Shown here piece after piece: positions 15,701-34,605 of a stretch of 61,274 nucleotides of DNA. The position numbers were made by a program, and so were the translations under genes. The notes below the pieces were generated by a model. It saw nothing but the letters and a program-made list of their open reading frames with translations. It was not told the origin of the DNA and searched no databases. Each line of letters begins with the position of its first letter. The first letter of the stretch is position 1. The stretch is from positions 1 through 61,274 of IMG/VR virus record IMGVR_UViG_3300025769_000007; one strand, written 5' to 3'. Origin of the DNA: a virus. Its lineage: Duplodnaviria; Caudoviricetes.

Positions 15701-18700
15701 CAACGTATGGATAAGTAGGGTGATCTTTTATTTTATCGTCAAGCCTAGAGTCAACATATCCAGCATCTACATCTATTCTGATAGCAGATACTATAGGGTT
15801 TCCTTTTAGGTCTTTTATAATGTCTTGATTAACAGTGTTATATATTTCCTTCATAGAAGGAATACCCCACTTTTCAAATATCTTACTCTGGATAGATTTT
15901 CTTATTATATCTTTTCTAACACCAAAAGCCTGAGGCATAGATAGAACTAAATTACTAAACTCTTTTACAGATTTAATCTTAGACGTTTTTATACCTTGAT
16001 CCTTAGCTTTAGAGTCAAAAGACTTAATAGTCATCTTTTTATTAAGGAAGTCTACAACTTCTTTTTTAGTAGCTCTCTTATCTTTTATGGCTTGATCAAG
16101 TTCTTTCATAACGTAATCAAACATGTTAACGCTACCGTCAATAGATCCTGGAGCCATAGCAGTTAAGAAAACTAAACCATCACTTTCTTTAGCTGCGTTA
16201 ATCATTCTAGTCGCTGCAGCCTTATCTGAGAATGCCCAAACACCTGTGTCTTCTTGGTAAGGATAAAACACTCCACCATCAAACTCATGTTTAACTCCTG
16301 TTGGAGATACAACCATACCAGATGCTGACCTATCGGTTAACATAAGTAAAGCCTTCTGACCATTAAACTCTTTTATACTACCTCTTTTTACTTTTGATAC
16401 GTCAAAGTTTGGGTAAAATTCAGGAGCTTGAAATCTTATCTCTTGGGTTTGAGTATTATCTGGTATATTTATGTTTACAACACCAAGGTCAGAATTGTTT
16501 TCTAATTTGTCTACTTGAAATTTAATAGACTCGTTAACCTTATCTTTATCAGCTTGTATGTCTCCAACTTCAAACTCTACACCTCCAACGTTAATCTTTC
16601 TACCATTCACTAAAGCTTCAGCTAAATCTGTTCTTAAATTAGATAAAGACATCTGATTAAGATCTATAGCTTCAACATTATCAAAAGGGGATGTAATACC
16701 AAGTCTAGATAACATCGCTTTTATAACTTCTCTAATTCTAGATAGTTTAGATTGACTGTTTACAAAGTGACCATAAGCAGCGTCACCCATCATCTCAGCA
16801 AAAGCTTCCTCTATAAGTCCTTCTTCAGAGAGACCTTCGTAGTTTGCTTCAGCCCACTCAAGATAAGACCCCTTCATTCTATTACCATCCTTCATCACTC
16901 TTCTCTTAACACCACTCTCTTTAACTTCAGCCTCTATTCTTTCATATAAAGCTGGGTCAGTCTTCTTAATGAAGTCAACCATTGGGTGAATGATCTCGTG
17001 GAATAAAGTGTTACCCTGAACAGTTTCAAGGTTTACATATATAGTCTTGTTAGATCCTCTAAAGAAAGAACTCATTTTTTTAGAAGGGTCTTGTCCTATA
17101 GTTTTTAATTGCTCTTCCATAGCCTTACTGTTCCTAACAACAGTAACGTTAAGACCACCAATAGAACTAAGTAATTTAAAGGCAAAGCCTAAAACTCTTT
17201 TTCGATCTTTAGTTAAACCTTGAAACACTTCACTATCATGGTTAGGATCACTCTCGTCTAACTTGTGAATGTTATCTGAGTTAAAGTTTTTACCATAACT
17301 TGTGTTGGCCCACTCAAGACCTGTATGTATAGATGTTTTTTCACCTGCAACATTCATTATAGTTAAGGCATCTCTTTTTCTAGCGTCAACCCCCTTAGCT
17401 ACATCTCCGTTTAAAGGAACTACACGTCCATCACCAAACATCAACCCATCCTTAGACGAGAAGATAGACTCTTGTTGGAATTGGTTACCTATATTTAAAG
17501 CAGTGGCGTTATCTATTCCTGTTACCACAAGGCTTTCTTCAGCAACCCCGTTGTAAACACCTTGAACGGTATAATAAGTTGCACCAGCCTCATCTAGCAT
17601 AGACTTAAGACTCTCCATTCTAGAGACTCTCTCTTGCTCTGTTAGACCTTCTTTCTCTGAAGTTAACACGTGGTAATCGTTGTTATCTATAACCTCTTGA
17701 GGTATCTCGTCAAGAGTTTCTTTCTTTGTTTTTAAGAATAGTTTATTGTTAATAGGAAATGAACCACTACCTGTAGTGCTTTTAGGTCTTTCAGCTCTAA
17801 GTTTAGCTTTTCTATTTTCTACTATACTTTCACTATAGTTAGCTTCAAATCCTTCTCTAGTTTCTTTCTCTCTTTTATTTAAACTATATCCTTCATCTTC
17901 AGCAAATGGATGTAGTCCATCAATAAGCTGTTCATTACTTGCAGGATTATCTTTACTAAATTTTTCGCTAGAATATCTAGTACCTTCTTCATCTTTAAGC
18001 TCTACTCTTTTAGAACCATCTTTACTAGTTTTTACCTCAACAGTTTGTGAATTACCATCTCCGTCTGTTATAGTATAGTATTCTGTTCTAATAATACTGT
18101 CGTCTTGAGCTAACTCATCTGATGTAAACTCTTGTTCTGCTACTTCCTTTTTAGATGCCTTATTAGCAACCTCAAAGTCTTTCATAGCGTTCCTAGCTGC
18201 AGAAACACTTTTAAACTTACCTTGAGTTATCTCTGACGTTTGAGATACTTCGCCATTAACCTTTATACCACTTTGGTTTTGAGACTGAACCACTGTTGGC
18301 TTTCTCTTACCATCCTCCAATTGTTTCTTAACAGCGTCATACTGCTCTTGACTATCTATCTTTGTAGCGTCTACAGTTTCAGTGACTTTAGATACAGACG
18401 TGTTTTGAGATTCTACAGCGTCTACTATTTCTATATTGTTGTCATCAAGGATTTTTTTAGACTCAGCTCTAGCAGCTCTAGTGCTTTCAGTAACGTTGTA
18501 CTTAGACTTCTTACCTTCAGCCTCCATTTCAGAGATAGCACTTGCAAGACTAGAGACGTCCTCCATAGAAACCTCGTAGTCTTCTTTTTTAGCTTTAGCA
18601 TCCTCTTTTGCTTGATTGATTTTTCTAGATAAGCTAGATACAGCTTTCTCTTTTTCAAACATCTTAGCTTTAGCCTGCTGAGCATCAGGTGCACTGTGAC

Positions 18701-20621
18701 CATAAACTAAATCATCTATAGCCTGTCGAGCCACATCACTTACAGAGTAGTCTACCTTAAGTTTACCATCTCTAATTTGTTGAGCTACTTCTGGATCTTT
18801 AGCAAGGTTAATAGCCTCACCTCTAGACACCTCTCTTGTTTCACCCTTTTCGTTTGTAAAGATTACAGAGGTGTTGTCGTTGATTATGTTTAGATTTCTG
18901 CTAATATCTTTAGCACCCCTAACTGTGGTATAAGTAAGTCCACCAAATAGAGATGATATAATGGCTGTATCTACCATCCTAATAGCAAACTCTCCAGAGT
19001 CGAACTCTTCTAACCCTACAGCCGCATCAGATAGATACTGAGAACCTTCTGTTGCTACCTCAGAAGATGTTTCTATAAACATAGATTTTTTAATACCTTG
19101 GAAGTAACTATCAAGTAAAATATTAGGATCTGTAATAGCTTTAAAACCACCAGCAGTTCTAGCAGAGTTTATAATTCCTTGGGTGTACTTTTCAAAGAAA
19201 GCCTCTGAAACAGCAGTAACACCTTCACTAAAGTGTATTTGCCAATCCTTTATATCTTCACCTTTTCTTCTTCTTTCTTTAAGTTCTAAAGATTTCATAC
19301 CTCCAGCTGAGGCACCACCAAGTATAAGGGGAACTGTTCCTCCACCTGCCAAGGCTATAGATAAAGTAAAAGGAACTGCGTTAGCAATACCATTACCTGT
19401 ATTAAAGAAAGCGTCATCAAAGTTGCCGTCAAATATAGCCTTTGTAATAGATGACTCTTCAGGTATTCTAGTCTTCTCTCTTATATGCTCAGCGTAATCG
19501 CTAACCTTATTAGCATAGTATCCACCCTCTTGCATATATAAATCCCAGGCAGATAAATCTTCAAACTCTTCTGAATCAGCTAAAGGAGACGGTTTCATCC
19601 CTAAGGCTGCAGGAGCTTTCTCTAACTGCTCAAGAGCCCCAGCACCTAAATCTATAGTTGTAGCTAAAAGATTCTGCCCCCAATCACCAAACCTTCCTCC
19701 AGAATCTATCTGTCTATTCATAAAGTCTTCAACGTACTTTATAGCCTCGTAGCTTGGGTCACTTGGATCTGGAACTCTTATACTAAAGTTTACGCTTTCC
19801 CCATCTTGGGCAGCGTTAACATTATCAGTCTTCATCCAATAGTCTAAAGCTTCGTTAATAGAAGCTTCTTTGCCATCTATAGTCATGGCAGACATTCTTA
19901 TATTGTTTGAGTCTATATCTGAATCTTCTAAGGCTTTAGAAAATTCTTCAGGTGATTGAGATGATTTAGCTATGGATTGAAACAAAGCGTTATCATACTC
20001 TGTCTTTGCAGCTTTAATCTTTTCTTCGTTACCAGATAGGTATAGTTTTGAAGTAGCGTCTTTCTCAGCTAGTTCGGTTTGTTCTTGGTTGTATTCTGAC
20101 CAATTAGAAAACCTGTCGTACCACTTCTCAGCCCAAGAGGCTTGATTATCTTTCTCTTCTTGAGTCTTTTTTGTTGACTCAACCTCTTCCTCTTTATTTT
20201 TTGCTGATAAAAAGTCATCGTAATTTAAACCCTGATCTTCAAAGAAAGGTCTTTGGTCTTCTTGTCTAGCTATCTTTATCTTATCCTCGTTGGAAACACC
20301 ATCATAACTAGCTAATCTTTCTTCTAAACTAAGCTGAACGTCTTGTTCCAAAGAAGATTGACCATCTTCCGATACTGATGGAGACACCCCTGAATCCACT
20401 TGGGCACTCGCACCTTGAGGCATAGAAGAATCTTTTTTTTTTAACCTAGACTCGTATTGCTCATAGTCACCAAGGTCTATGCCTTTACCAGAAACAGTAT
20501 CGTAAAAACTTTTACGCATATCTTCTGTTTCCATTTTAGCAGAAAAGTCATCAAATGAACCAACATCAAACTTAGTTGAAATTGCTTCGTATAGTTTTTT
20601 TAAATCGTCATTCATTACCAT
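12783..20621 (-). CDS. Giant polyvalent virion (probably ejected) protein with SAM-lyase-like and zincin-like domains
   Basis: 2612 aa, last gene of the virion module; FHEIIHP...EEAFAE; VLTS...QGVY...EESLVV...FQQESI; true start probably 20615 (TAATG coupling). Confidence 0.75.
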   Translation of the reverse strand: MVMNDDLKKLYEAISTKFDVGSFDDFSAKMETEDMRKSFYDTVSGKGIDLGDYEQYESRLKKKDSSMPQGASAQVDSGVSPSVSEDGQSSLEQDVQLSLEERLASYDGVSNEDKIKIARQEDQRPFFEDQGLNYDDFLSAKNKEEEVESTKKTQEEKDNQASWAEKWYDRFSNWSEYNQEQTELAEKDATSKLYLSGNEEKIKAAKTEYDNALFQSIAKSSQSPEEFSKALEDSDIDSNNIRMSAMTIDGKEASINEALDYWMKTDNVNAAQDGESVNFSIRVPDPSDPSYEAIKYVEDFMNRQIDSGGRFGDWGQNLLATTIDLGAGALEQLEKAPAALGMKPSPLADSEEFEDLSAWDLYMQEGGYYANKVSDYAEHIREKTRIPEESSITKAIFDGNFDDAFFNTGNGIANAVPFTLSIALAGGGTVPLILGGASAGGMKSLELKERRRKGEDIKDWQIHFSEGVTAVSEAFFEKYTQGIINSARTAGGFKAITDPNILLDSYFQGIKKSMFIETSSEVATEGSQYLSDAAVGLEEFDSGEFAIRMVDTAIISSLFGGLTYTTVRGAKDISRNLNIINDNTSVIFTNEKGETREVSRGEAINLAKDPEVAQQIRDGKLKVDYSVSDVARQAIDDLVYGHSAPDAQQAKAKMFEKEKAVSSLSRKINQAKEDAKAKKEDYEVSMEDVSSLASAISEMEAEGKKSKYNVTESTRAARAESKKILDDNNIEIVDAVESQNTSVSKVTETVDATKIDSQEQYDAVKKQLEDGKRKPTVVQSQNQSGIKVNGEVSQTSEITQGKFKSVSAARNAMKDFEVANKASKKEVAEQEFTSDELAQDDSIIRTEYYTITDGDGNSQTVEVKTSKDGSKRVELKDEEGTRYSSEKFSKDNPASNEQLIDGLHPFAEDEGYSLNKREKETREGFEANYSESIVENRKAKLRAERPKSTTGSGSFPINNKLFLKTKKETLDEIPQEVIDNNDYHVLTSEKEGLTEQERVSRMESLKSMLDEAGATYYTVQGVYNGVAEESLVVTGIDNATALNIGNQFQQESIFSSKDGLMFGDGRVVPLNGDVAKGVDARKRDALTIMNVAGEKTSIHTGLEWANTSYGKNFNSDNIHKLDESDPNHDSEVFQGLTKDRKRVLGFAFKLLSSIGGLNVTVVRNSKAMEEQLKTIGQDPSKKMSSFFRGSNKTIYVNLETVQGNTLFHEIIHPMVDFIKKTDPALYERIEAEVKESGVKRRVMKDGNRMKGSYLEWAEANYEGLSEEGLIEEAFAEMMGDAAYGHFVNSQSKLSRIREVIKAMLSRLGITSPFDNVEAIDLNQMSLSNLRTDLAEALVNGRKINVGGVEFEVGDIQADKDKVNESIKFQVDKLENNSDLGVVNINIPDNTQTQEIRFQAPEFYPNFDVSKVKRGSIKEFNGQKALLMLTDRSASGMVVSPTGVKHEFDGGVFYPYQEDTGVWAFSDKAAATRMINAAKESDGLVFLTAMAPGSIDGSVNMFDYVMKELDQAIKDKRATKKEVVDFLNKKMTIKSFDSKAKDQGIKTSKIKSVKEFSNLVLSMPQAFGVRKDIIRKSIQSKIFEKWGIPSMKEIYNTVNQDIIKDLKGNPIVSAIRIDVDAGYVDSRLDDKIKDHPTYPYVVKGEPLMIFDESVDASEVWDELNLADKFLIDSRTGEKLSEGTTQARRQRKIEMARPVVDIRMQAPQAEGETNVYTSGLTTIAFDIADKVIEADYKAGKYLTGKLSKAGFDKGKEYEIRLSQLLGKPFGTHSNEEIKEIMVLSRGNLNAELLRVSENSKALKKALEGTDFTSGQINDLLHNMDEIRSMEDSEIKSILMDMRIHIDQLSRTLIEEEMIEGSTMFTVDENMGVYVRRSYKQFEVKGWEQTDNDIIKKAKEFLYREVESQNKKDVEEGRLDENGEPITLMSKDKIKDKAEVNYRKITEDKEFLYNMKNSTSLDGLNRVSSIFKEKKVIPEEIRELWGQIDNPLFNYSNTVSKLARTVSAERMFREIYDVGNGKFISNEQTSDTYYELKGSKFGSLEGKFVDEEMFAVMNQVSDGFDSKWWYNFYMKVVLFNKKMKTVWNPGTHFKNIIGNSAFATMNGHIGFRGGMYKDSKTSFNAVRGLKDAELEALYSKLVKLGVVNSSASLQEIRGIANDVYDSNFDLSEYLDESKGYVGKQIAKVGRGSKKLIKLFDDKAMSAYQAEDDIWKIFGFISEKARYIKAGLDVSTAEEMAAKNIRNLYPNYNEVPRIIRLLGRSPLVGSFVAFQAESVRNAKNTLALGFEEMGSDNSKIKKIGATRIAGTIFTMYLMESIQLYTAQFLGQMIGLGGEDDEKIEERMMRTLMPEWDASGNISYISKGELDSRQTEGQTQKDKYFDYINFSSISGVGYTKDIMRIMFNDLNTKIGKESMMDVLEKVYAPFLGEEMTLKVLRDAINNDGNKVFNPTDKPHMQIASVMSYVGNKIGPGALKTGKRIYDSMDRDSEMVPEYEVLAFFGLRVSRVNVNKNMSIQAYYVYKDMIDRVGYEVLKDQDMLMNTSNSGGSTYDSKMDNYVNRLVDVYGAGILNSIEGDDILAIFRNSRISEEVIKLVDQRAKSRYQEDYINVEAK

Positions 20622-22116: not shown

Positions 22117-23376
22117 TTAGTATTTAGATTTCATGTAGGCTCCCATTCTAGCCTTAATCTTAGATAGGTAACCTCCACCTTTCATTTGAGGTGCGTCAAC
22201 TCTACCTTTCTCTTTAATCAATTGCTCTCTATAGTTTTTAATAAAGTCAATCTCAGCTTTACTTGTTGAATCTATATCGAAAGAAAGCTTATCACCAATA
22301 TACTTAACAAGTCCAGCAGGATTTGTTGGGTCTTCATCGAAAGGAAGTTCTCCAACGTTTCTAACTTGATCAGCGTTACCTTTCATTACTCTTACTATTT
22401 CCTGAGCCTTGTCTTGATTTAAAGGTGGTACAGTAGGTTTTTTAACCTTACCTCCCTCTTGAGCTTCACTATCATCATCACCTATGACATTCTCGTCATA
22501 CTTAGCAACTAAATCTTTCATTAAGTCAAAAGCAACATCTTTATCTTCACTCTTTAAAGCCTCTCTAATGTTGTCAACATCATCAGGAGGTAGTATAAGT
22601 TCTCCACCTGTAGCCTCACCAATCTTCTCACCGTCCTTGACCATATCTATAGGGTTACTGTTGTGATCAAACTTCCCTGGTGTTACTCCGCCCTCTTCAG
22701 AATCAATTTTACCACCTTTTTTCAGGGTCATTTTACCACCTCTAAGCTTTGCTTCTGGCTGATCATAATCTATACTAGATACCTGATCCACAGGATCTAA
22801 AGTTACAGCTTTTTGACGACTACCAAAATTCATAGCACCAATACCACTAGCTATATCCTCAAGACCACCAAATATATTTTGTTCTGCAGCAGCCTTCTGA
22901 CCTACTATACCTTTAAGTTCAGATTCAGCAACACCCAGTCTTTGACTCTCAGCCATTTGTTGTTCTTGAGACAATCTTTGTAAAGCCTGAGTTTTAGCTT
23001 CTTGTTGTTCACCAAGTAAACCTAACTCTTGCTCTCTAGCTTGTCTTTGAATACCCATAGCACCAGATAATGCTGCTCTAGGGTCTCTAGCTAAGTTTCT
23101 CATAGCTGTAGCTTGACTAGCAAGCCTAGATTGCTCTAAGCCTTCTATGTAATCCTGATCAATAGGCTCATCAACCATTCTTCTAGTAGCTGAACTAATT
23201 CCTCTTTCCAATCTACCTTTATCAAAAGCTTCCTGAGCCTTTCTAGCTTTTCTAGCCTGAATACCACCGTATATTGCCCTACCTAAGCCAAGAGCTGCTG
23301 TTGCAGCTCCAACAAAAGCTTTAGGTGCTTTTTTATTTTTGTTGTATTTTATCTTAGTTTTTACTCTACGTGCCAT
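22117..23376 (-). CDS. Probable internal virion / ejection protein
   Basis: Ala/Gly-rich amphipathic N-terminus, Gln-rich helices, KKGG/EGG motifs, TPGKFDHNSNPI...EATGGE. Confidence 0.65.
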   Translation of the reverse strand: MARRVKTKIKYNKNKKAPKAFVGAATAALGLGRAIYGGIQARKARKAQEAFDKGRLERGISSATRRMVDEPIDQDYIEGLEQSRLASQATAMRNLARDPRAALSGAMGIQRQAREQELGLLGEQQEAKTQALQRLSQEQQMAESQRLGVAESELKGIVGQKAAAEQNIFGGLEDIASGIGAMNFGSRQKAVTLDPVDQVSSIDYDQPEAKLRGGKMTLKKGGKIDSEEGGVTPGKFDHNSNPIDMVKDGEKIGEATGGELILPPDDVDNIREALKSEDKDVAFDLMKDLVAKYDENVIGDDDSEAQEGGKVKKPTVPPLNQDKAQEIVRVMKGNADQVRNVGELPFDEDPTNPAGLVKYIGDKLSFDIDSTSKAEIDFIKNYREQLIKEKGRVDAPQMKGGGYLSKIKARMGAYMKSKY

Positions 23377-23391
23377 GTTATTGAATTTTTA

Positions 23392-23399
23392 CAAATGTA
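23392..23399 (-). promoter_or_regulatory. -7 promoter box TACATTTG for the ejection-protein block
   Basis: Consensus match 16 nt upstream of ATG 23376. Confidence 0.65.
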
Positions 23400-23413
23400 C
23401 TAATTTTTTTTTA

Positions 23414-26400
23414 TTATTTATTACTAAGCTCACTCTTGTCTACATCTACGTTTGCAGCGTACAAATTAAATTTGTATTTAGACTGATACCAGTGAGATGT
23501 AAGGATTGTTTTAAGGTAGTGACCTTTTAGCTTCTCACCGTCTATAAGACCCTCCTTAACTATAAAGTAAAACTTATTACCTTGTATATCGTTGTAATTA
23601 TCTGATATAAATTCAACCCTTTCCTGTGTCACGTTGTAAACCCATCCTGCGTGTTTAGTTTCTCCTGTCTTAACATCCATACAATGCAAAGAGTATTCAC
23701 ATGGGAAAACAGAAGACCTAGACCTAGATGATGTTCCATTTTTAGCTACAAAAATTCCTCTAGGTGGATTTACTTTCTGAATATTTAAATTATTTATATA
23801 AAACTCAGGTTGATTTTCTTCAGATCTTATATATAAATAAGGGTCAATGTTTTTGTCACCAGAGTTTAACTCAATTTCATGATTTTGTAAGTAATTTGTA
23901 TTGTCAATTGAAATAGTCTGAAATGACGAACCTAGTTTACCAGATTGATTAACTCTATCTCCAATTCTAAAAGACAAAGAAACTTTACTTCTGTCTAATA
24001 CATCTATTAAGTTTAATCTAAAAGAAATTATATACTTAGAATTAGACTTAAAGTCTATAGTAGAACTTGTCCTTACTTGAGATGAAGAATTTTGTTTGTC
24101 AAAATACAAAACGTTACCACTTCTTTTTTTGTTTTTTTGAACTTTAACTCCTGAATCTACAACAGTCCAATCAGAAGAGTTCGCAAAATTACCTTTAGAA
24201 GATAAGATGTCTTTACCTTTATTGAGGCCACCATTAAGATCAAAAACTTCTTCAAACTTAAAATCTTCTCTAATATCTAAAATTCCGTACACTCCACCAG
24301 GAATTATATTAGAAACAGTAGTAGATTTACTACCCATAAAAGGAAGACTGTTAGATTTAAAATCACCTTTAAGGATAAAATTAGAACCATAACTACTTGC
24401 ACTAAACATACCTAATCCAAAAATATTAGAAGCGTCTCCATCAAAATCACCTTGAAAGTCACCATACTCATTTACGTTAAACTTGCTTGGAGCAAAAGGA
24501 ATTTGAGAATATTGAACGCCCTCCTTTGTTTTATAATCTATAACATCAATTCTATTGTTTTTTGACCTGTAGTTAACGGAGTTGTCTAAAATAACTTTTT
24601 GTTTTGTTAAGATACTTTTAACTACATTGTACTGAGGACTTAAATTTTCTGCATTATAGAACCTAATTAAATCACCTGGAGATAAATCTTTATAAAAGTT
24701 AGAGCTTGGAGATCCATAAAGGCAGTAAGGAGAGTCTTCTTTCGTTGATATAGTTCCGTCAACTTTTTTATAACCTATCTGAGTAGATACAACAGAGTCA
24801 TAAGAGTTATTGTATTGACCCATATTAGTAGACATGTTAGTTAAAAGCTTTGTGTCACTTTCTAACGATATGCTATTATAGGTTTTTACAGATGATGGGT
24901 CTGAGTTAAACGGAAACTCTATATTAGAGTTGTATCTAACACCATAGAAAGTATTAAAATTACTTTTATTTTCAGTGTTGTGTCTGTATATTTTACCATT
25001 TTTATACGTAACAAACTGTCTATTTATTTTGCCATAAAACTCTGGTTTATAGCTATAAAAAGATGTCCACTTTTTTAAAGTGTCATTAAAAGCTATAGTT
25101 TTAGCAGGGTCAAAAACTGCAGCATCTTGATTACTAACTAAACTGTAAGACTCGTCAAAATTAACAGAATCAAATCCCCAAAATCCAGAATTATTATAAT
25201 CTTCAGTTTTTAATATAGCTGGTAGAGTAACTATATACTCATCATACTTAGGATCGTAGCCAGCAACAATTTTAAGGCTTTCAAATTCTTGATCTATATA
25301 CACTTGACCTTTATCTCTAATATAATCAGACAATCCATAGTCAGAGATTCTTGTAATACCATCTCCGCCAAGCCTTAATATAGAACCTCTCTTTATGTCT
25401 ACAAAATAAAACCTATCATTATTCTCAACTATACTTTCAGGGTTGAGGCTACAACCATTCTCTGCAGAATACACCTGAGCATAATCAGCAAGTATATCTT
25501 TAGATAGCGTTAGATTAGAGTTACCATCAGCATAATTAACTATATTTTTACCAACCAAAGCTCTACCTACTCTATTCTCATGAAATATCAAAAGGTCATC
25601 ACCTTTAATCATTAAAGATTGTATTGACCCAAAGTCTTGATTGTAGTCGTAGTATGGAGATGTTGCCATATCAAAAGTACTAAGACCATTAAAATTAGCC
25701 GTACCTTGAAAAACATCAGAGTAGTATACTGAGGCTGACAACCTTCTCTCTTCAGAATAAGGATTTACTATATTGACTCTACCCTTATCCCAGTTGTCAG
25801 AATTATAGAAATCTGTTAGGTAATAACTCTCGCAAGCAAAAGCAACTTGTTCAACCCCCGAAGTTAGGTTCCCATCACTTTCAACACGTTTTTCATGATA
25901 AGGAACCATAACCCTTCTTCTAGTGTAAACATCACCATGAAGTAAAGTTCCAGCAGCATAGTTTGTAGTTTGGTTTCCACTATCATCAATAGGTCCATTT
26001 AGACCATCTATAGCTGTAACCTCCATTCTAGACTCTTCGTCAAAAAAGTAATCAGAACCTTGCCCCTGATGAGACCTAAAATCAGTTCCTGGATTCTCTA
26101 TCTCAAACTTTTCTCCTACCTCATAAAACAAACCAGAAACCTCTGATTGTATAGATTTTTTAGGTCTATATATTTCTACTATAAGTCTATTATAGCCGTT
26201 ATGTGAAAAATCATAGTCAGTATGATCAACATCAGCATGATCAATAGCTATACTACCATCAATAGTTCCATTATTTGCTGTAGAAAAATCTATATCGTTA
26301 CCAGCATCTGTAGGACTATCTATAACAATGTAAAATCCTGGAATACGATCAGATCCACCAACAGCATCCTGAATCTCCTCTTGAGTGTAAAAATCATAAG

Positions 26401-29254
26401 AAGATATAGGAATGTCTATAGACTCTTTAAAATAACGCCTAGAGTTTTCATTACTATTATCATTTGACTGATTTGATAAACCAAAAGATATGTACCTAAC
26501 CCTATCACCTTTTGCGTAAACATAATCTATTACAGCTGATGTAGAATCTAAGTAACTCTCCATATCAATATCCTCTTCACCTAATCCTTTTAATGACCCT
26601 AAGCCTAAATATATCTTATTAGAGTTGTTACCAGTTCCTTTATACGAGTTTAGTATAGGGATTTGTATAAACTCATCTACAGTAGTATTACCAGAATAAA
26701 CCCACTGATAATGAGTTGCCCACACTGGAGGTTTGTGATATATCTTCCACTCAAGACCATTAAATGTACTTTGATTTTGAGAAATCTCAGTATAAAAAGG
26801 TGCGTACACGTTTGTACCTGAATTAAAACTATTTATAGCCTTTGAGGTATTAACAAAAGAAGCTCTATTTGTCTCGTCATAATAGACTAAGCCAAAACCA
26901 TGATTAGCCCCAGTTTTGTAAGATTTACCAAAAGAAGGTGCACCTCTAAAAGACGATTTTATAGCAGATATTTGACTATGATACATGTTTGTAGTTCCAC
27001 CTGAACTAGTTCCTTTACCTGCAAATTCTAAATTAGGAGTTGTGCCTTCACCAGTTTCTGTATAATTAGTGTCATTACTAGGTATGTCAATAAATATACT
27101 GTCAGGTAGTGGGTCATAATCTTGTAAATAAGTAAATGTTATAGATAATTTTTTATCAGATGTATTGTAAGACGCTGTTGTTAGGTCATGTTTAGGTGCA
27201 GTTTGCAAACTACCACCAGTATAAGTATGGACGAAATAACCCACACTATTATCTAAATCAAAGTCTCCAACGTTAATTCTTTCTTCAAGGTGTAATCCTA
27301 TAGCGTTAATATTACCAGGATTAAATATAGATGATTCATGTCTAAAAAAACCACCTCTAGGAATAATACTTGATCCTCCAAACTGCCCATGATTTTGAAA
27401 TAAAGTTTTAGTCCATTCGTAATTAATTTCTATAATTCCTTCACCACCATTTGTTTCTGGGTCTATATTAGAAAGATCAAAACTAACCTTAAAAACAGTA
27501 CTAATGTTTGGACCACCTGCATTTACAACTTCAAAGTCAGGACCACCACTATAATTAGTTATGCTACCTCCAGTAATTGAATTTATAAACTGATTAGAAG
27601 CTTCTAAACTAGTTACAGGGTTTATCTGTAAATTGCAGTATATATCTGTATTGTCATATCCATCAACAACGTTACCATACGCTATTCTATTCTTAGGTAG
27701 TATAGTTTGAGCTTTCGCTAGTTTAGGTAAAGCATCTTGAAGCTTATCAATATCTGTTTTAGATACAAAAGGATAAACACCATCATTTCTAAATATTGCA
27801 GTTGAAAACTCAACATTAGTTTGAGTAGATCCACCAAAAAACAAACTAGGGGTAAAGAAAAGAGATTCGTTCTTTCTTCTTTTTAAGTACTTTATAAAGT
27901 CATTAGGTATAGTTTCTACAAGGAAAAACTCACCATCATTACCATCCCTAGCTACAACTTCTACCTTATCCACATAAGATATACTATCGTTATACTTTAT
28001 ATTTATAATATTATTTACAGCGTTGTTAATAGTAGTGTTGTCTTCACCAGAAATATATCTTTTAGTATAAACGCTTTGGTTAGCTACATCTGATATACCA
28101 CTATATGCTGATACAGTACCATCCTTGTAAACATATCTATATCTAAACTGAAAAAATTTACCAACTATATGGTTTACCCTAGCAGGCTCTTTGTTAAAAG
28201 AAAATTCAGGCTTATATCTTGGTTGATGAGATAAAGCGTCAAGGTATACCATCTTATCTTCAACTTCCCCAAAACTAATTAAAGGAGAGTAAGCGTCATC
28301 AGGCTGTGCGTACAACACTCTACCCCCAGGAGATGTTTCTGCTAAATCAATAAATGGCGTACTAGTTATAATACCATTATCAGTATTTAAAGCAGAATTA
28401 AAAGATGATAAATCAAAATTGATATAACTAGCACCTGCATAAGCCCACTCAGTAGTAGCTTCAAAAGTATGAGTGTCAACGATGTAGTCAATCTCAATTA
28501 AATGTGCATTACCACTAACCACAACGCAAACAAAGTCACCAGGAAACAATTCATCAGTAGGAGTAGTTCCCTGCATTGTAACAGTTTTATTGTTTTGCGT
28601 TAAGGTAACATGAGTTGTTCCTTTTGCGAACCTCTTAATAATACCGACAGCTTTAGCGTAACCATTATACCCTTTACCTAACAAGTCTGGAGATATTATA
28701 CCAAACTGTTGAAGATACAAGTGATCGTTTTTTTCAAAAGGGTGATTATTAGTTACACCAACTAATATAGTTCTAGTATCTTCTTTCAATGTAGATGAGA
28801 ATACAGCAGTAGTACTTGACCCTGAAGTTGACTCTTTTAATATACCTTGAAATGTAGGACCAAGTTTTATATACTGCTCGTTTCTTTTAGCTTTCTCTAC
28901 ATCAATCTTTCTAGGTCTATTAAGGTTATCTGTCCAATACAGTATATCTTCAACCTTATTGATACCAGTTATAAGGTGGTCTTTATCAAAGTTTAAGATA
29001 TTTTCATTAATCCCATTACTACCTGTTTTACCATCTTGATAAACCACAGTAGTCTTGTTTTCAACTTGGCTATACTCTATAATGCAATCGTACTTACCAG
29101 AAACACCAATATTATCTTCAGAGTATAAAAAGTAATATATACAATTTGTAGTCTTATCTTCATAAGAACCTATGCAGGTATACTCTCCCGACAAAGATTT
29201 AGTTGAAAAACTTTTATGTAAGTCTGAGTTTTTATTTTTTATTGTTAAAGACAT
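23414..29254 (-). CDS. Tail nozzle / stabilization protein (crAss-like, P22 gp10-like), lacking its usual first ~50 aa
   Basis: CIGSYED...LITGINKVEDILYWTDNLNRPRKI, FQFRYRYVYKDG, RIAYGN, FGLVYYDE, YGLSDY, GYDPKYDEY, WTSFYSYKPE, GEKLKGHY. Confidence 0.8.
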   Translation of the reverse strand: MSLTIKNKNSDLHKSFSTKSLSGEYTCIGSYEDKTTNCIYYFLYSEDNIGVSGKYDCIIEYSQVENKTTVVYQDGKTGSNGINENILNFDKDHLITGINKVEDILYWTDNLNRPRKIDVEKAKRNEQYIKLGPTFQGILKESTSGSSTTAVFSSTLKEDTRTILVGVTNNHPFEKNDHLYLQQFGIISPDLLGKGYNGYAKAVGIIKRFAKGTTHVTLTQNNKTVTMQGTTPTDELFPGDFVCVVVSGNAHLIEIDYIVDTHTFEATTEWAYAGASYINFDLSSFNSALNTDNGIITSTPFIDLAETSPGGRVLYAQPDDAYSPLISFGEVEDKMVYLDALSHQPRYKPEFSFNKEPARVNHIVGKFFQFRYRYVYKDGTVSAYSGISDVANQSVYTKRYISGEDNTTINNAVNNIINIKYNDSISYVDKVEVVARDGNDGEFFLVETIPNDFIKYLKRRKNESLFFTPSLFFGGSTQTNVEFSTAIFRNDGVYPFVSKTDIDKLQDALPKLAKAQTILPKNRIAYGNVVDGYDNTDIYCNLQINPVTSLEASNQFINSITGGSITNYSGGPDFEVVNAGGPNISTVFKVSFDLSNIDPETNGGEGIIEINYEWTKTLFQNHGQFGGSSIIPRGGFFRHESSIFNPGNINAIGLHLEERINVGDFDLDNSVGYFVHTYTGGSLQTAPKHDLTTASYNTSDKKLSITFTYLQDYDPLPDSIFIDIPSNDTNYTETGEGTTPNLEFAGKGTSSGGTTNMYHSQISAIKSSFRGAPSFGKSYKTGANHGFGLVYYDETNRASFVNTSKAINSFNSGTNVYAPFYTEISQNQSTFNGLEWKIYHKPPVWATHYQWVYSGNTTVDEFIQIPILNSYKGTGNNSNKIYLGLGSLKGLGEEDIDMESYLDSTSAVIDYVYAKGDRVRYISFGLSNQSNDNSNENSRRYFKESIDIPISSYDFYTQEEIQDAVGGSDRIPGFYIVIDSPTDAGNDIDFSTANNGTIDGSIAIDHADVDHTDYDFSHNGYNRLIVEIYRPKKSIQSEVSGLFYEVGEKFEIENPGTDFRSHQGQGSDYFFDEESRMEVTAIDGLNGPIDDSGNQTTNYAAGTLLHGDVYTRRRVMVPYHEKRVESDGNLTSGVEQVAFACESYYLTDFYNSDNWDKGRVNIVNPYSEERRLSASVYYSDVFQGTANFNGLSTFDMATSPYYDYNQDFGSIQSLMIKGDDLLIFHENRVGRALVGKNIVNYADGNSNLTLSKDILADYAQVYSAENGCSLNPESIVENNDRFYFVDIKRGSILRLGGDGITRISDYGLSDYIRDKGQVYIDQEFESLKIVAGYDPKYDEYIVTLPAILKTEDYNNSGFWGFDSVNFDESYSLVSNQDAAVFDPAKTIAFNDTLKKWTSFYSYKPEFYGKINRQFVTYKNGKIYRHNTENKSNFNTFYGVRYNSNIEFPFNSDPSSVKTYNSISLESDTKLLTNMSTNMGQYNNSYDSVVSTQIGYKKVDGTISTKEDSPYCLYGSPSSNFYKDLSPGDLIRFYNAENLSPQYNVVKSILTKQKVILDNSVNYRSKNNRIDVIDYKTKEGVQYSQIPFAPSKFNVNEYGDFQGDFDGDASNIFGLGMFSASSYGSNFILKGDFKSNSLPFMGSKSTTVSNIIPGGVYGILDIREDFKFEEVFDLNGGLNKGKDILSSKGNFANSSDWTVVDSGVKVQKNKKRSGNVLYFDKQNSSSQVRTSSTIDFKSNSKYIISFRLNLIDVLDRSKVSLSFRIGDRVNQSGKLGSSFQTISIDNTNYLQNHEIELNSGDKNIDPYLYIRSEENQPEFYINNLNIQKVNPPRGIFVAKNGTSSRSRSSVFPCEYSLHCMDVKTGETKHAGWVYNVTQERVEFISDNYNDIQGNKFYFIVKEGLIDGEKLKGHYLKTILTSHWYQSKYKFNLYAANVDVDKSELSNK

Positions 29255-29275
29255 TGTTGTTGTTTAATTAATTTA

Positions 29276-32200
29276 TTAATCAAATGGGACACCATTATTT
29301 ATTGTAAACTCAAGTGCTTTACCAATATGAGAACCAAACCAAAATATTCCTCCACTTGTAGACTCAGCAAATCTTTTTAAATAAATATCATCTGAAAATG
29401 TTACATTATCACCTTCATTTTGGTTATAATAAAGTAATATCTGAACCATGCCTATATCAAAAAACTCACTTAAGGAATCTACATTAATTACTGGATCAAC
29501 AAAATTTACACCTGCACTAATAGTAGGATTTGGTGCTGTAGAAGTTAACTCAGTAGTGTTTTCGTCAAAGTTAGCAAATATAATATGCATAACTTGAGTT
29601 GGATAACCACCTCCTGGTATCTCAAACTCAATAGTTTGACCATTAGTAAACTTGTTTGTTATATAGTAACAGAAATTATTTGTAGGGCTATGTGGTTGAT
29701 CACGCAAAGCGTCCAATTCTTGTTCGGTTATAAAAACTATGTTTTCGCCATAAAAATCTTCACCATTGATTGTCCATTCTGGCTTTACACCACAAAAAGC
29801 ACCTGCTGTGTGAAAATATGAAGGAGTTGCCCATTCAGAAGTGATCCCAACCTCTGGACCCTTTACACAATAAGTTCCTGCAACAACATTATCTCCCAAA
29901 AGTATATTATCTAAAACAGGATCGAAACCAAGCCCAGCATTCATATTCTCTATAGTAAATATAGCGTTATCAAGTTGAAATTGTAAATCATCAATGTACA
30001 GTTGTGCAGCATCAAGGTTTCCTTCTAAAGTGGATACAGTTAATTGATGCGATTGCTGCATAGTTTCTAAAGCAGAAATATCTGCATTTGAAGCTAAGAC
30101 ATATAGGTTGTATTGATTATAAAGCTGAGTCGTAACAGCGTTAGAAAAATCTGTAACAGAGTCTACATAATCTGAAAGTCTATCTCCTAGGGGAGTAAAC
30201 GCAGTAGTCTCTGAATAGCCAGGAACGATTAATGATAGATAATTCTCATACTGTGACTCACCTATAAACTCCTTAAAGGTATCTAAACCAGAATCTTGCC
30301 ACCCTATAACATCAGAGTTAATTAAATTAAATAATTCATTAAAGGACGTTTGATGTTCTGGAACTAAATTATTTAAATTAAAAGCAAACATCTCTTGAGC
30401 ATCATTACCCACTCGAATATTTGTGATTCTATATTCAATATTTACATTCGGAACAGGAGGAAATACAATAACAATATTAGCGTATCTATCTAAATAATCA
30501 CCTTGATACCCTACGTTATTATTAACAACAGTAAAGGTATGTAAAAAAGGTTCTGGGTTATTTGATCCTCCAGGAGTTAAATTGTATTGTTCATCAATGG
30601 CAACCTCTTCAGATGAATTATAATTACCTGTAGTATCCCATTGATTAGTTATCTGCACACTTATATTATTTGGTATTGACGCAGAACCAGATGTAGATGT
30701 ATTAACAACTTCAAAAGTTATTGACAAAGTTATTTCAGCACCATTTACCCAAGCTGCTGAGTTTTGAAAGGAACTGTAAGGAAGTCTAAAAGCTCCATAA
30801 GAACTTCCTACACTAGAAATTGCTTTTAAGTGGCCGTTTTGTTCAAATAAAAATGAAGGTAATGAATTTACAGAGTTTCCAGCAGTAAGATATGCATTAT
30901 CATAAAAAGTCCACTCATTTTCATAATCAGAAGTTGGAGAAAAATCCTCCTCATAAATAATTTGATTATCTATATTTAAAGCGTTATATGCTTCTAGACT
31001 TAGATTATATGATAGAGTTGTATCGATATAAATTTGATTAAAATTATCAAGTATAGACAATATTATAGCATCAGATATAGCGTTAGCATTAAGCTGTTCC
31101 TGCAACGCATCTATTTGCTCTCCAAGTTCGTAAACGTTAGTCTGAAGATTAACTATTGTGGCATCTTGATCCGAAACCTGAGTGGTAAGGGAAGTAATAT
31201 CTACTTCTAAAGCTGCTACTTCAGCATTATGCTGTGCATTAAGATCAGCTAAATCTTGATCAAACTGTGCTTGCAAAGCGTATTGTGCAGCTTGGTCAGC
31301 AGCTTCTGCATCATCTAAAGCTTGTTCATGTTGAGCAATAAGGACAGCCACTGCATGATTATGATCCAATGTTAATTGAGCAATCTCTGCAGCATGTTCA
31401 TCATCTTGATCCTCCATGTCTTGAACATACTGAGCTAACATTTGATTAAGAGCATCCACAAGATCCTCAAGGTTATTATTAGCATTTTCAAGTAATGCTA
31501 TCTCAGCCCCTAACTCAGCCTCTAAAGCTGCTAATTCACCTCCATGAGCCACATTTATAGCTATAATAGCGTCTGCTAATGTTACTATCTCTGCATTAAG
31601 TTCAGCTATTGTTATTACTTGAGATGCTGTTAAATCCTGTTCAGCTTCTAAATCGTTTACAGCTATATTTAATTGAGACTGAACGTAATTTAACTGATCA
31701 CCAACTGACTCTAAATCTTCATTCAAACTAGCTATCTCTATAAGCATAGCGTCATTTTGCTCTTGATAAAAATCAAGCTGCTGACCCAGATTACTAATAG
31801 TACTAACGTGATCAGAAATAACACTTTCAGCTAATTCTAAATTAGACTCAGTCTCTCCTAGTTCTGCCAATGCTGTTGCTGTTAAATCTATCTGATTAGC
31901 AAGATCCTCCTGTAAATTGTTATTAGTAATATTTAGTTCAATTAAAGTCTGTTGTTGCTCACCATATATTTGAATTTGATGTGCTAATTCTTCTTGTAAG
32001 CTATTAAAATCATTAATTATAGAGTCTGTAATTTCGATGGAATTTTCAACTATTTGATAACTATTAAGAGTCATCATTGTTCCGTTTCCAAAAACTTGCA
32101 AAACATCAGATTCTCCAACATCAAATCCTTCTGCTTGACTTAAAATATTATTTATGCTATGATAACTATACCCTAAGGCTAACTTAAATTTAACACCAAC

Positions 32201-33376
32201 AGGTCCTACAACGATAACAGTAAAGTTGTTTTCACCATTAAAAGTTGCGTTTTCAGAAAATGTTAAAAAGAATTTTTCAGGATCTATATTAAAATTTAAA
32301 GGCAAACCGTCACAAAGGATAGTTTTACTTTCAGAAAATTCATTATGTAAAAATGCAGATAAGTTATTTTGATTTGAGTCAAACTCAAACTGTCCAGATG
32401 AAAATGTAGATGAATTTATAGTCAAAAAAGGCTCAAACTCATAATCATTATTTTGATCTGCTGGGTTAAGGCTCTCCCTATAAGAGAAAACGTTTACTTC
32501 AGGGAAATTCGCAGGTGACGTAGGCTCTTCTCCTGCAACAAACGTAATTCTCCATACAGTTCTATTACCAACTTCGTAAAAAGTACCGTTAGGACTTATA
32601 ACAACACCATCATCATTAGCGTCTGTATTAAAAACACCTCCAGTATCAAAAGATGGTAACAACATTATAGAAACGTTTTCACTAGGAGTTATTGGTATAC
32701 TAGAATCTTCAGAAAAAGTATAAGTATACTGAATATCAGGTAGGCCAGGGGGAGAATACCTTTCACCGCCTGTTGAATTTAAAGATACAGATACACCAAG
32801 ATCAAAATTAACACCAGCAACGTCACACTCAACTACAACATCAAAATAACCACCATGCAACATAGCGTTTTGACCAAATGTTAAAAGTTTTATGCTTGCC
32901 GTATATTGATCTCCAGTATTTACATCATACACGTTAATACCGCTATTGTAAGGACCAACACTACCAAACTGAGAGTATAAATATTGAGCTGTAAAAGTAT
33001 GATTAACATTTCCAGACCAATTAAACTCACCAATAGGAATATTTCCATTTGGCCCAACTGAAAGTAAAGTAAATCTGTATTCAGAATTATTTTGTTCCCA
33101 TCCTTGTATCCTTATAACCTTTTGATAGAATACAGTCGCAGGATTTATTTCTTCATATAAACCATTATCATTAACAAAAAATGTTTCTGATTCTGTAGAA
33201 TAAAAATCAAAAGGGACTACCTCGTTACCTTCTATATTCTCTAAAGACCCAACAGTTCCATCAACAGATGTTGCTGCTCTAACATTTAAAGCGTCTATGT
33301 AATCTGGGTTTTTAATAAGACGAACATCTCCGTCTTTATTCATACCACCTAAAAAACTTCTCTTATCTAAAGGCAT
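29276..33376 (-). CDS. Acidic coiled-coil virion protein carrying the nozzle N-terminal motif
   Basis: Starts FLGGMNKDGDVRLIKNPDYIDALNVR...GSLENIEGN, then a long heptad region with no K or R. Confidence 0.7.
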   Translation of the reverse strand: MPLDKRSFLGGMNKDGDVRLIKNPDYIDALNVRAATSVDGTVGSLENIEGNEVVPFDFYSTESETFFVNDNGLYEEINPATVFYQKVIRIQGWEQNNSEYRFTLLSVGPNGNIPIGEFNWSGNVNHTFTAQYLYSQFGSVGPYNSGINVYDVNTGDQYTASIKLLTFGQNAMLHGGYFDVVVECDVAGVNFDLGVSVSLNSTGGERYSPPGLPDIQYTYTFSEDSSIPITPSENVSIMLLPSFDTGGVFNTDANDDGVVISPNGTFYEVGNRTVWRITFVAGEEPTSPANFPEVNVFSYRESLNPADQNNDYEFEPFLTINSSTFSSGQFEFDSNQNNLSAFLHNEFSESKTILCDGLPLNFNIDPEKFFLTFSENATFNGENNFTVIVVGPVGVKFKLALGYSYHSINNILSQAEGFDVGESDVLQVFGNGTMMTLNSYQIVENSIEITDSIINDFNSLQEELAHQIQIYGEQQQTLIELNITNNNLQEDLANQIDLTATALAELGETESNLELAESVISDHVSTISNLGQQLDFYQEQNDAMLIEIASLNEDLESVGDQLNYVQSQLNIAVNDLEAEQDLTASQVITIAELNAEIVTLADAIIAINVAHGGELAALEAELGAEIALLENANNNLEDLVDALNQMLAQYVQDMEDQDDEHAAEIAQLTLDHNHAVAVLIAQHEQALDDAEAADQAAQYALQAQFDQDLADLNAQHNAEVAALEVDITSLTTQVSDQDATIVNLQTNVYELGEQIDALQEQLNANAISDAIILSILDNFNQIYIDTTLSYNLSLEAYNALNIDNQIIYEEDFSPTSDYENEWTFYDNAYLTAGNSVNSLPSFLFEQNGHLKAISSVGSSYGAFRLPYSSFQNSAAWVNGAEITLSITFEVVNTSTSGSASIPNNISVQITNQWDTTGNYNSSEEVAIDEQYNLTPGGSNNPEPFLHTFTVVNNNVGYQGDYLDRYANIVIVFPPVPNVNIEYRITNIRVGNDAQEMFAFNLNNLVPEHQTSFNELFNLINSDVIGWQDSGLDTFKEFIGESQYENYLSLIVPGYSETTAFTPLGDRLSDYVDSVTDFSNAVTTQLYNQYNLYVLASNADISALETMQQSHQLTVSTLEGNLDAAQLYIDDLQFQLDNAIFTIENMNAGLGFDPVLDNILLGDNVVAGTYCVKGPEVGITSEWATPSYFHTAGAFCGVKPEWTINGEDFYGENIVFITEQELDALRDQPHSPTNNFCYYITNKFTNGQTIEFEIPGGGYPTQVMHIIFANFDENTTELTSTAPNPTISAGVNFVDPVINVDSLSEFFDIGMVQILLYYNQNEGDNVTFSDDIYLKRFAESTSGGIFWFGSHIGKALEFTINNGVPFD

Positions 33377-33381
33377 TTAAT

Positions 33382-34605
33382 TTATATTTTTGGAGATTGC
33401 TTAAATGCTTTCCTAGAAACCTGCATAGCAGCCTCTTTATTAAAGTTCATCATCCTAGCTCTAGCTAATCTCTTCTCGTTATAGTAAGCTCTTTTAGCCA
33501 TTTGTTTCTCGTTAGCAGGAATACCACGTTTTCTCTGAATGTACTTGTAGTACATATAAGACCTTAAAGCTTCTTCGCAAAACTTATGTATCTTAGGTAC
33601 ATCACCTGAAGAACCTAATTGAAGTAAAGATTGGCTATCTACAGAAAAAAATGCAGATGAGCCATCATACAAATTACTATCAAACTCTCCATCAGTACTT
33701 AGTAAATCTAAAGGATCTGAAGTAAGATTACTAATTGTTATAATAATATTATTTTGATCATCAACTGCTGTTATGTTAGAGTCGTTAGGAGAAACATGAT
33801 ACCTTGGGTGACCATTATTTATAACATCAGTTAAAGCTTCTGCAACGTCAATGCTTGAGCCATCAAATAAATTAACATAAACCTCTGTAGATAAAGGATT
33901 ACTACTTAAATTATCGTAATCATATATTATTGCTCCAGTCGAATCCATTACAGCAGTATCTTTAAAAGTATAAGTAATCACACCTCCAGACCTAGATGGT
34001 ATTTTAATTGTTGTATCGTTAGAAATACCAGCAAGAAGATTTGAACTTGCAAGAGGAGTAGCTATATTAAATTTAACAATATGATCCTCTCCAGGTGTAG
34101 CGGTAATGCCATCAGATATATACTCCATAAACACTGTTTTACCACCAACATCTGAAGAGAAGTTTATAGTACCATCTTGTCTATTTATTCTGTAATAACC
34201 TAAAGTATTTTTTCCTCCACCTATACCAAACTTTTTTCCTATATCTGTATGATAATAAGGATTGTTTTCATCATAAGCTTCATCCCCAACTTGAGACGCT
34301 ACACTAGCATCTAACACTAAGTTAGGGTTACTACCTAAGGAGTGAAATTCATCATCATCTCCTCTATATCCAATTCTATTTATTTTTACGTAATCAGCAG
34401 GTAAAGTACACTGAAGTGTTGTAGAGTTTACAGCAAGTGTAGTAGTCTTAACCCTTTGCTCAACATCAAACGTAAGCTCTCTTAAGCCTTGTAAGGCTAA
34501 CAATCTTAGCTGATATACACTAGCTTCTTTTTCGTAAGATGTGTCGTCAATCATTAACTGAAAATCGTTAACAATTTCTTCTATTGTTGTGTAATCTATT
34601 GCCAT
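33382..34605 (-). CDS. Tail ring / head-tail adaptor protein with internal insertion
   Basis: GLRELTFD, INFSSD...MEYISDG and IHKFCEEAL motifs of crAss-like ring proteins. Confidence 0.7.
   Translation of the reverse strand: MAIDYTTIEEIVNDFQLMIDDTSYEKEASVYQLRLLALQGLRELTFDVEQRVKTTTLAVNSTTLQCTLPADYVKINRIGYRGDDDEFHSLGSNPNLVLDASVASQVGDEAYDENNPYYHTDIGKKFGIGGGKNTLGYYRINRQDGTINFSSDVGGKTVFMEYISDGITATPGEDHIVKFNIATPLASSNLLAGISNDTTIKIPSRSGGVITYTFKDTAVMDSTGAIIYDYDNLSSNPLSTEVYVNLFDGSSIDVAEALTDVINNGHPRYHVSPNDSNITAVDDQNNIIITISNLTSDPLDLLSTDGEFDSNLYDGSSAFFSVDSQSLLQLGSSGDVPKIHKFCEEALRSYMYYKYIQRKRGIPANEKQMAKRAYYNEKRLARARMMNFNKEAAMQVSRKAFKQSPKI

Follow-up and report, generated by a model that had tools for sequence, protein, structure and literature searches.

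The muzzle protein of PhicrAss001, gp44, sits at the tail tip as a hexamer; its domains include a ring-joining one and a seven-bladed propeller similar to that of the T7 nozzle (PMC10172136). The account of its length variation (Bayfield et al., Nature 2023, PMC10172136) places this in insertions into the crass and IG2 domains and reports no split of the protein. A split nozzle has been described for the Pseudomonas podophage A1002, the two parts being the nozzle-rope gp39 and the nozzle-base gp42 (PLoS Biol 2026, PMC13730344). As outlined in that report, the nozzle core is without some platform and propeller strands, which the rope supplies by β-strand complementation (PMC13730344). The complementing part is the C-terminal ~150 amino acids (aa) of the rope, and the N-terminal platform strands remain with the base. 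The remainder of the rope protein forms a fibre apparatus, and separate fibre dimers are docked by the rope (PMC13730344). Described here is a muzzle divided between two adjacent genes, P0001 and P0002, of a 61,274-nucleotide (nt) stretch of viral DNA (Duplodnaviria; Caudoviricetes; positions 1 to 61,274 of IMG/VR virus record IMGVR_UViG_3300025769_000007), hereafter the window. With considerable confidence, the pair is read as a giant crAss-type muzzle (podophage nozzle) protein that has undergone gene fission, with docking of the detached segment in trans.

P0001 is an open reading frame (ORF) of 1366 aa at 29276-33376 on the minus strand, as are all features located below, and its product opens MPLDKRSFLGGMNKDGDVRLIKNPDYIDALNVRAATSVDGTVGSLENIEGNE. 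P0002, an ORF of 1946 aa at 23414-29254, carries CIGSYEDKTTNCIYYF at residues 27-42. Its start lies ~25 residues ahead of the first propeller motif, and the N-terminal muzzle segment is missing from it. The first propeller motifs (CIGSYED...IYYF...YWTD) occupy residues 21-135 of P0002 (28850-29194). The missing segment, referred to here as the N-motif, forms residues 1-58 of P0001 (33203-33376). It was found once across the six frames of the window, and ~1310 residues of P0001 come after it. The junction (29255-29278) consists of the stop TAA of P0001 (29276-29278) and a 21-nt spacer with two further in-frame TAA codons, reading ...F D TAA TAA ATT AAT TAA ACA ACA ACA ATG, with both ORFs in one common frame. 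The muzzle family is defined by a single polypeptide with an N-terminal segment and a core; in the window these are found on two ORFs. P0001 and P0002 together, and neither alone, equal one member of the crAss_MUZ family. A first-pass annotation of the window had given the ORF coordinates, the motifs, the three in-frame stops and the common frame, all of which were borne out from the sequence. It had also stated that the two motifs are contiguous in single proteins, and this proved correct. Each of Gundel_1 gp60, phi38:1 gp097 and UOF82506 of MW202828 is a single protein that has the N-motif and, 6-11 residues further on, the propeller motif (C-I-G/S...IY[YW]F).

The division can be followed along Pfam family PF25731 (crAss_MUZ), a profile of 1224 positions with a cut-off of 27 bits, which is split between P0001 and P0002. 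The first 100 aa of P0001, scanned alone, matched with 35.9 bits (E 3.3e-9), positions 5-61 of the profile corresponding to residues 6-61. Positions 1047-1223 correspond to residues 1200-1419 of P0002, at 58 bits when this piece was scanned alone. In the unsplit relatives P0100, P0101 and P0103 the best PF25731 stretch begins at 4-7 and runs unbroken to 150-215, crossing the split site. A 70-aa N-motif query against 1.84 billion representatives returned 568 proteins at E<=0.001, and the match begins at the protein N-terminus in 149 of the 150 matches listed. The resemblance of the N-motif is therefore not due to chance, as the PF25731 score is above the cut-off and nearly all of the listed matches begin at the N-terminus. 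P0002 matches phrog_14478 (E 1.1e-78), and a precomputed PF25729 (crAss_MUZ_C) match is present in many of the homologues. A search of PHROGs gave nothing for P0001, and sequence searches of the PDB with P0002, P0001, P0101 and a 16-sequence profile gave no muzzle or nozzle chain. A separate observation concerns PF25731 on P0001: a conserved head that is short can escape a whole-protein scan if it sits on a long protein of biased composition.

Similar to gp44 of PhicrAss001, the pair belongs to this Pfam family (by its pieces scanned alone), and the genes are placed after those for portal, capsid and ring-type structural proteins. The two systems differ in that gp44, as described, is one polypeptide, whereas here the N-terminal segment lies on another protein. 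The relatives of the window also carry an insertion of 1100-2400 aa after the N-terminal segment, unlike the gp44 of that description. A tblastn search of P0002 against phage records gave 91 records, all below 60% identity, most being phages of Flavobacterium, Cellulophaga, Tenacibaculum and Maribacter. Cellulophaga phi38:1 gp097, Tenacibaculum Gundel_1 gp60 and the proteins of the Flavobacterium elemo phages are homologous to P0002, with 26-34% identity in the best segments. They share with the window an equal gene order and have the N-motif followed by the propeller motif within 6-11 aa. However, each is encoded by one gene (1324-1551 aa) that lacks an insertion, and a separate N-motif protein is absent.

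The relationship between the two genes can be seen in giant relatives. Residues 1-420 of P0002 retrieved 74 proteins, among which the close relatives of P0002 (1763-2074 aa) begin ~25 aa ahead of CIG. The giants comprise a large set of 2758-3388 aa and others of up to 4131 aa, and have the N-motif at residues 1-58 with a propeller that begins only at residue 1164-2427. Their first 350-800 residues are homologous to P0001. Residues 1-762 of P0001 align with P0063 (26.9% identity, E 1e-36) and residues 1-384 with P0070 (30% identity). The beta-rich proximal domain of P0001 (~66-445; 32042-33181), with block values of the predicted local distance difference test (pLDDT) mostly of 76-89, is shared with the giants, and in most of them the N-terminal 330-400 aa are 26-34% identical to it. 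As P0001 aligns with the N-terminal part of the giants, P0001 and P0002 are collinear with a single-chain giant muzzle. The first-pass annotation had described the ~1310 residues that separate the two motifs as unrelated. The residues are present, but they are homologous to the insertion inside the giant muzzles of relatives.

The giants have a common linker ahead of the propeller, ...LGAKRF[VI][RK]N..L.KTTV.DNSSSSYK-CIG. In a second split clade (L006, L007) the N-terminal protein ends in ...LGAKRFVKNKI or ...GARRMTKNNI directly before the stop, and that of L041 ends in ...RMTKII. The muzzles of the window's clade begin with MSLTIKNKNS and retain the IKNK part of the linker. Remnants of the linker thus fall on different sides in different clades, and the cuts were therefore made at different residues of one linker.

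Docking in trans was modelled by a complex prediction with three chains, each with its own alignment: P0002 residues 1-135, P0002 residues 1140-1946 and, as partner, P0001 residues 1-58. The interaction score (ipSAE) was 0.84, 0.83 and 0.82, and the best of three controls reached 0.00. In the calibration, 58 of 80 solved complexes and 2 of 110 mismatched pairs attained this mark. The pLDDT of the partner was at least 77, and contacts agreed by at least 92% between runs. The predicted interface has 204-219 confident contacts and places P0001 1-58 against P0002 residues 1307-1311, 1337-1339, 1388-1402, 1416-1457, 1477, 1912-1939 and 59-68. The predicted main docking surface is P0002 1388-1457 (24884-25093), joined by the conserved extreme C-terminal strands at residues 1912-1939 (23438-23521). 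The tightest predicted pairs are between P0001 26-31 and P0002 1398-1401 and 1441-1448, and a strand of P0001 is predicted to sit between two strands of the P0002 core. The predicted contacts coincide with the most conserved columns of both families, and W1396 and Y1400 of P0002 are nearly invariant. When P0001 1-1200 was folded alone, the residue 1-60 block had a pLDDT of 31-49.

At the level of prediction, the complex model supports binding of P0001 1-58 to P0002. This had been anticipated by the first-pass annotation, in which the N-terminal ~50 aa were held to be separated from the nozzle, to act in trans and to tether a long appendage, and in which a complex of the N-terminal peptide with the 1946-aa protein was proposed as a check. 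The check succeeded on the pieces of P0002 (0.83 vs 0.00). The collinear fused homologues, together with a conserved N-motif that has low pLDDT when alone, add to the support for the claim, the binding itself being a predicted one.

The closest mechanistic precedent is the split nozzle of A1002, compared by its described layout. As in A1002, a second protein would supply part of the core's fold: by sequence, P0002 is without the N-motif and its neighbour P0001 carries it, and complementation in trans is predicted. The differences are several. The part that has moved in the window is N-terminal (58 aa of the appendage protein), and not a C-terminal platform-C/propeller-C part as described for A1002. 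The phage family and the protein family differ, and the P0001 appendage has its own predicted coiled-coil and carbohydrate-binding-module (CBM)-like domains, unlike the rope as outlined in the A1002 report. Fused intermediates and repeated fission are documented for the group discussed here.

The arrangement of the locus was classified for 105 rows (104 loci and the window), corresponding to 100 distinct places as five contigs were entered twice; 80 of 186 viral-contig relatives were kept. A single ORF with motifs less than 100 aa apart is the form of 58 of the 100 distinct loci, and at 13 the motifs of a single ORF are 100-255 aa apart. A single giant ORF, its motifs more than 1000 aa apart, was found at 11 loci, the two-ORF layout at 10 (the window and nine contigs, of which L087 is unclear), and 8 are interrupted by a contig end. 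The two-gene layout is clear in 8 other contigs, with 37-86% identity of the muzzle gene. The architecture of P0001 is also a recurrent one, as all 26 matches to its residues 1-70 in the length band of 751-2391 aa have the N-motif and no propeller. The split is an old, conserved state and not a one-off.

Some loci of this set deserve separate mention. The small inserts (L010-L017, L019, L020, L022, L024, L026 and L079; 13 loci) lie at the insert site of the giants. L021 (7998-17984) encodes a 3328-aa muzzle in which the N-motif and the start of the propeller are only 7 aa apart, and its length must therefore come from insertions elsewhere in the protein. At L087 (2590-9579) an N-motif ORF of 627 aa is followed by ~1.5 kb without a single long frame, and the muzzle ORF begins inside the first propeller region. 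This is a possible decayed copy, a different split or an assembly problem, and L087 was excluded from the clear splits. P0076 and P0093 were considered as splits and dropped: both are almost identical to giant or partial rows, and their gene calls are probably truncated.

The conserved N-terminal region of the muzzle was used for a tree of 80 rows, in which the giant/split group is not reliably rooted. The window's split clade contains 20 rows (support 99), and its sister contains 51 rows (support 98), giants with nested split clades. After 13 doubtful or long-branch rows were dropped (P0076, P0093 and 11 others), at least three changes between split and giant are needed on the tree. Forcing the 28 split rows together costs 80.9 log-likelihood units, with p = 7.6e-07 in an approximately unbiased (AU) test of post-hoc design. 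By tree and linker sequences, the split state arose at least twice, at different residues of one linker.

The following course of events is proposed. In the wider family, the loop right after the N-terminal ~58 residues is read as an insertion site, with no content in short proteins, 100-255 aa in some and a fibre-like module of 1100-2400 aa in giants. In the lineage of the window, a stop and a new start would have arisen in the linker at the end of the giant's module. The N-terminal strands would then head a separate 1366-aa protein, with the 1946-aa core left behind. During tail assembly, P0001 1-58 would insert as β-strands between the C-terminal strands of the muzzle core (~1388-1457 and 1912-1939). 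This insertion would restore the N-to-C closure of the core at the ring-joining end, and the inserted strands may be part either of the last propeller blade or of the ring-joining (platform) domain. One appendage would be fixed per muzzle subunit, so a hexameric muzzle like that of PhicrAss001 would carry six. The appendage is probably used for binding to the host surface, with glycans as the likely target.

The unusual junction could be explained in other ways. Three in-frame stops are odd, and this oddness is all that speaks for an assembly artefact or a recently broken pseudogene, the chance of which is practically negligible. Run X6, which belongs to a different study and sample, has a 460-nt contig that spans 29000-29459 and bridges the junction with 0 differences, giving no sign of the misassembly that the first-pass annotation had named as a possible objection. 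The whole stretch is also present in runs X1 and X2, from which the window itself may derive. No RNA run was among those listed as containing the sequence. The same layout recurs in the 8 other contigs, the ORFs are open over 1366 and 1946 codons, and the muzzle start MSL[TI][IV]KNK is kept across the window's clade. The common frame could also suggest that stop-codon readthrough, recoding or a suppressor yields one giant protein from both ORFs, since the ORFs share a frame in the window and in L004 and L005, its two closest relatives, across spacers of 21 and 27 nt. However, these spacers contain further TAA codons, such that three in-frame TAA fall within 24 nt in the window and in L004/L005, and no other clear split locus is in frame. 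Six of the nine clear split loci are out of frame (L028, L029, L035, L006, L007 and L041; spacers of 2-14 nt), of which L028, L029 and L035 belong to the window's own clade. The shared frame noted in the first-pass annotation is thus real but incidental. No transfer RNA (tRNA) gene was found in the window and no Rfam element in 23000-34000 at E<=1, and the other long ORFs of the window all read normally under table 11. Readthrough is very unlikely in view of the out-of-frame splits and the absence of a tRNA gene or Rfam element. No terminator-like site was seen between P0001 and P0002, and promoter-like sites were at chance level (25 vs a mean of 23.7) in a scan that was not modelled on Bacteroidota promoters.

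Other explanations accept the split and differ in its function or history. The N-motif of P0001 might no longer plug into P0002, and might serve in ring or adaptor binding alone or persist as a vestige. The ring-joining domain of PhicrAss001 is described as contacting the ring protein R5 (PMC10172136), and part of the role of the N-motif could therefore be ring contact. A complete loss of docking is nevertheless quite unlikely, given that the N-motif is the most conserved part of the P0001 family and that P0002 is without a replacement for it. The size of the predicted interface, with the most conserved columns on both sides, also argues against such a loss, as does the fact that the corresponding segments belong to one chain in fused relatives. 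The history could also have run in reverse, with two ancestral genes and giants formed by gene fusion. The tree leaves room for this, as the giant/split group has no reliable root and the window's clade is sister to the whole giant-bearing clade. Against it, the N-motif is part of the muzzle in all short outgroup forms (58 loci), and it was therefore separated by insertion within one gene or by an inserted gene. The linker pieces on different sides of the cut are also explained more simply by separate cuts than by repeated fusions. The reverse order is regarded as unlikely, and we infer a direction from fused to split.

Gene fission with docking in trans also has to be weighed against a number of results that do not favour it. 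PF25731 was not listed in Pfam scans of full-length P0001 and P0002, where only sub-threshold matches appeared (Filament, Sec10_N and crAss_MUZ_C); it was matched only by cut pieces. Residues 1-600 of P0002 gave no PF25731 match, and crAss_MUZ_C (PF25729) on P0002 1432-1480 reached 21.8-22.8 bits, below the cut-off of 27. The complex prediction was a job unlike those of its calibration, with P0002 given as two chains and residues 136-1139 omitted. The alignments supplied to it contained fused and unsplit homologues, and the pass therefore shows contact of these segments within the family rather than binding by this particular pair. The pass may also reflect likeness to solved nozzle or muzzle structures. 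The split group used in the AU test was named after the first tree was known. Lastly, the likeness of the modelled P0001 jelly roll to a CBM is at the level of fold only.

The P0001 model has a mean pLDDT of 67.2. The predicted order is a beta domain, five long helices, a beta sandwich, further helices and a C-terminal beta domain. The helices, in five segments at residues 451-799 (30980-32026), comprise ~350 helical residues by DSSP of the model and are a putative coiled-coil shaft; a weak Pfam Filament match lies at 524-660 (E 5e-4, below the cut-off). A single extended coiled coil of these helices would give a shaft of roughly 50 nm. The sandwich (~805-992; 30401-30964) has a jelly-roll fold like that of CBMs, and was aligned by VIA-align with the CBM4 module 1gui_A (Z 11.4; root-mean-square deviation 3.0 Å; 137/155 aligned). 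Modules of CBM22, CBM16 and CBM61 were close behind 1gui_A, Foldseek gave the same jelly-roll class, and an Atlas search with residues 795-1010 gave a weak lead to CBM_4_9 (0.90; 136 shared features). A second helical stretch is predicted at ~993-1150 (29927-30400), followed by the C-terminal beta domain at ~1164-1361 (29294-29887), the most variable part among relatives. An Atlas search with residues 1135-1366 gave no usable match. Foldseek whole-chain matches of the 1200-residue model were to long helical proteins at TM-scores of 0.05-0.09, and were rejected as meaningless.

The conservation of P0001 decreases away from its N-terminus. Over 20 relatives, identity to P0001 is 62-100% for residues 1-58, 20-93% for 59-450, 12-76% for 451-790 and 10-70% for 791-1200, and the C-terminal ends are unrelated among members of the clade. 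In run X8, the similarity of a related phage's contig stops precisely at the P0002 start codon ATG (29254), and 328 other letters replace 29255-29555, the 3′ end of the P0001 gene. The exact coincidence with the gene border suggests a boundary of recombination or replacement. The pattern of distal variability fits a fibre with an exchangeable distal part.

The tail fibre of T7, gp17, has a conserved N-terminal anchor and docks at the adaptor-nozzle interface. P0001 resembles tail fibres and tailspikes in its conserved N-terminal anchor, its variable distal part and its long predicted shaft. Unlike in these proteins, the anchor of P0001 is no separate domain for adaptor binding; it is a piece of the nozzle's own fold and is traceable to one ancestral chain.

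A wider reading, put forward only tentatively, is that the loop after the N-terminal strands of the muzzle cradles tail fibres. An entire receptor-binding fibre would have grown inside the nozzle gene and then been released at least twice (probably at least three times) as a separate gene that keeps an anchor of nozzle fold. If this were general, the N-terminal fibre anchors of podophages could originate as detached nozzle or adaptor strands, and split points would mark sites for the non-covalent attachment of foreign receptor-binding modules. The locus would represent a natural, conserved case of split-protein complementation in the virion, the complementation being predicted, and a route for the origin of a fibre gene with a fold-derived anchor. 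All stages persist in related phages: unsplit, with a small insert, giant fused, and split at least twice. The muzzles of 3000-4000 aa in uncultured phages, the cultured relatives of which infect Flavobacteriia, could be explained as nozzles with a built-in fibre. Searches of an open-access library listed no paper on crAss-type muzzles that are split or giant. A1002 (2026) has the only split nozzle described, and the present case extends it to another phage group and to the other end of the protein, with an evolutionary series. Both the split point and the 58-aa tag can be tested directly as a docking module.

The genomic context is that of a virion structural region. Upstream of the pair on the coding strand are genes for the large terminase subunit, the portal, an SU10-like capsid protein and three virion structural proteins, and downstream are two ORFs without assignment, then a 2612-aa virion protein. 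This gene order matches that of phi38:1, Gundel_1 and MW202828. The ring-type proteins encoded upstream have 407, 247 and 292 aa. The only match of the 2612-aa ORF (12783-20621, minus) is to a PHROG virion structural family, phrog_22602 (E 2e-26), and it may encode a giant internal or cargo protein. P0002 has a highly conserved extreme C-terminus (...DGEKLKG...NVDVDKSELSN), a diverged form of which ends the short unsplit relatives. A variable stretch at ~1616-1850 of P0002 lies between conserved segments and this C-terminus (within 23414-24410 of the window), and may be a second variable surface module.

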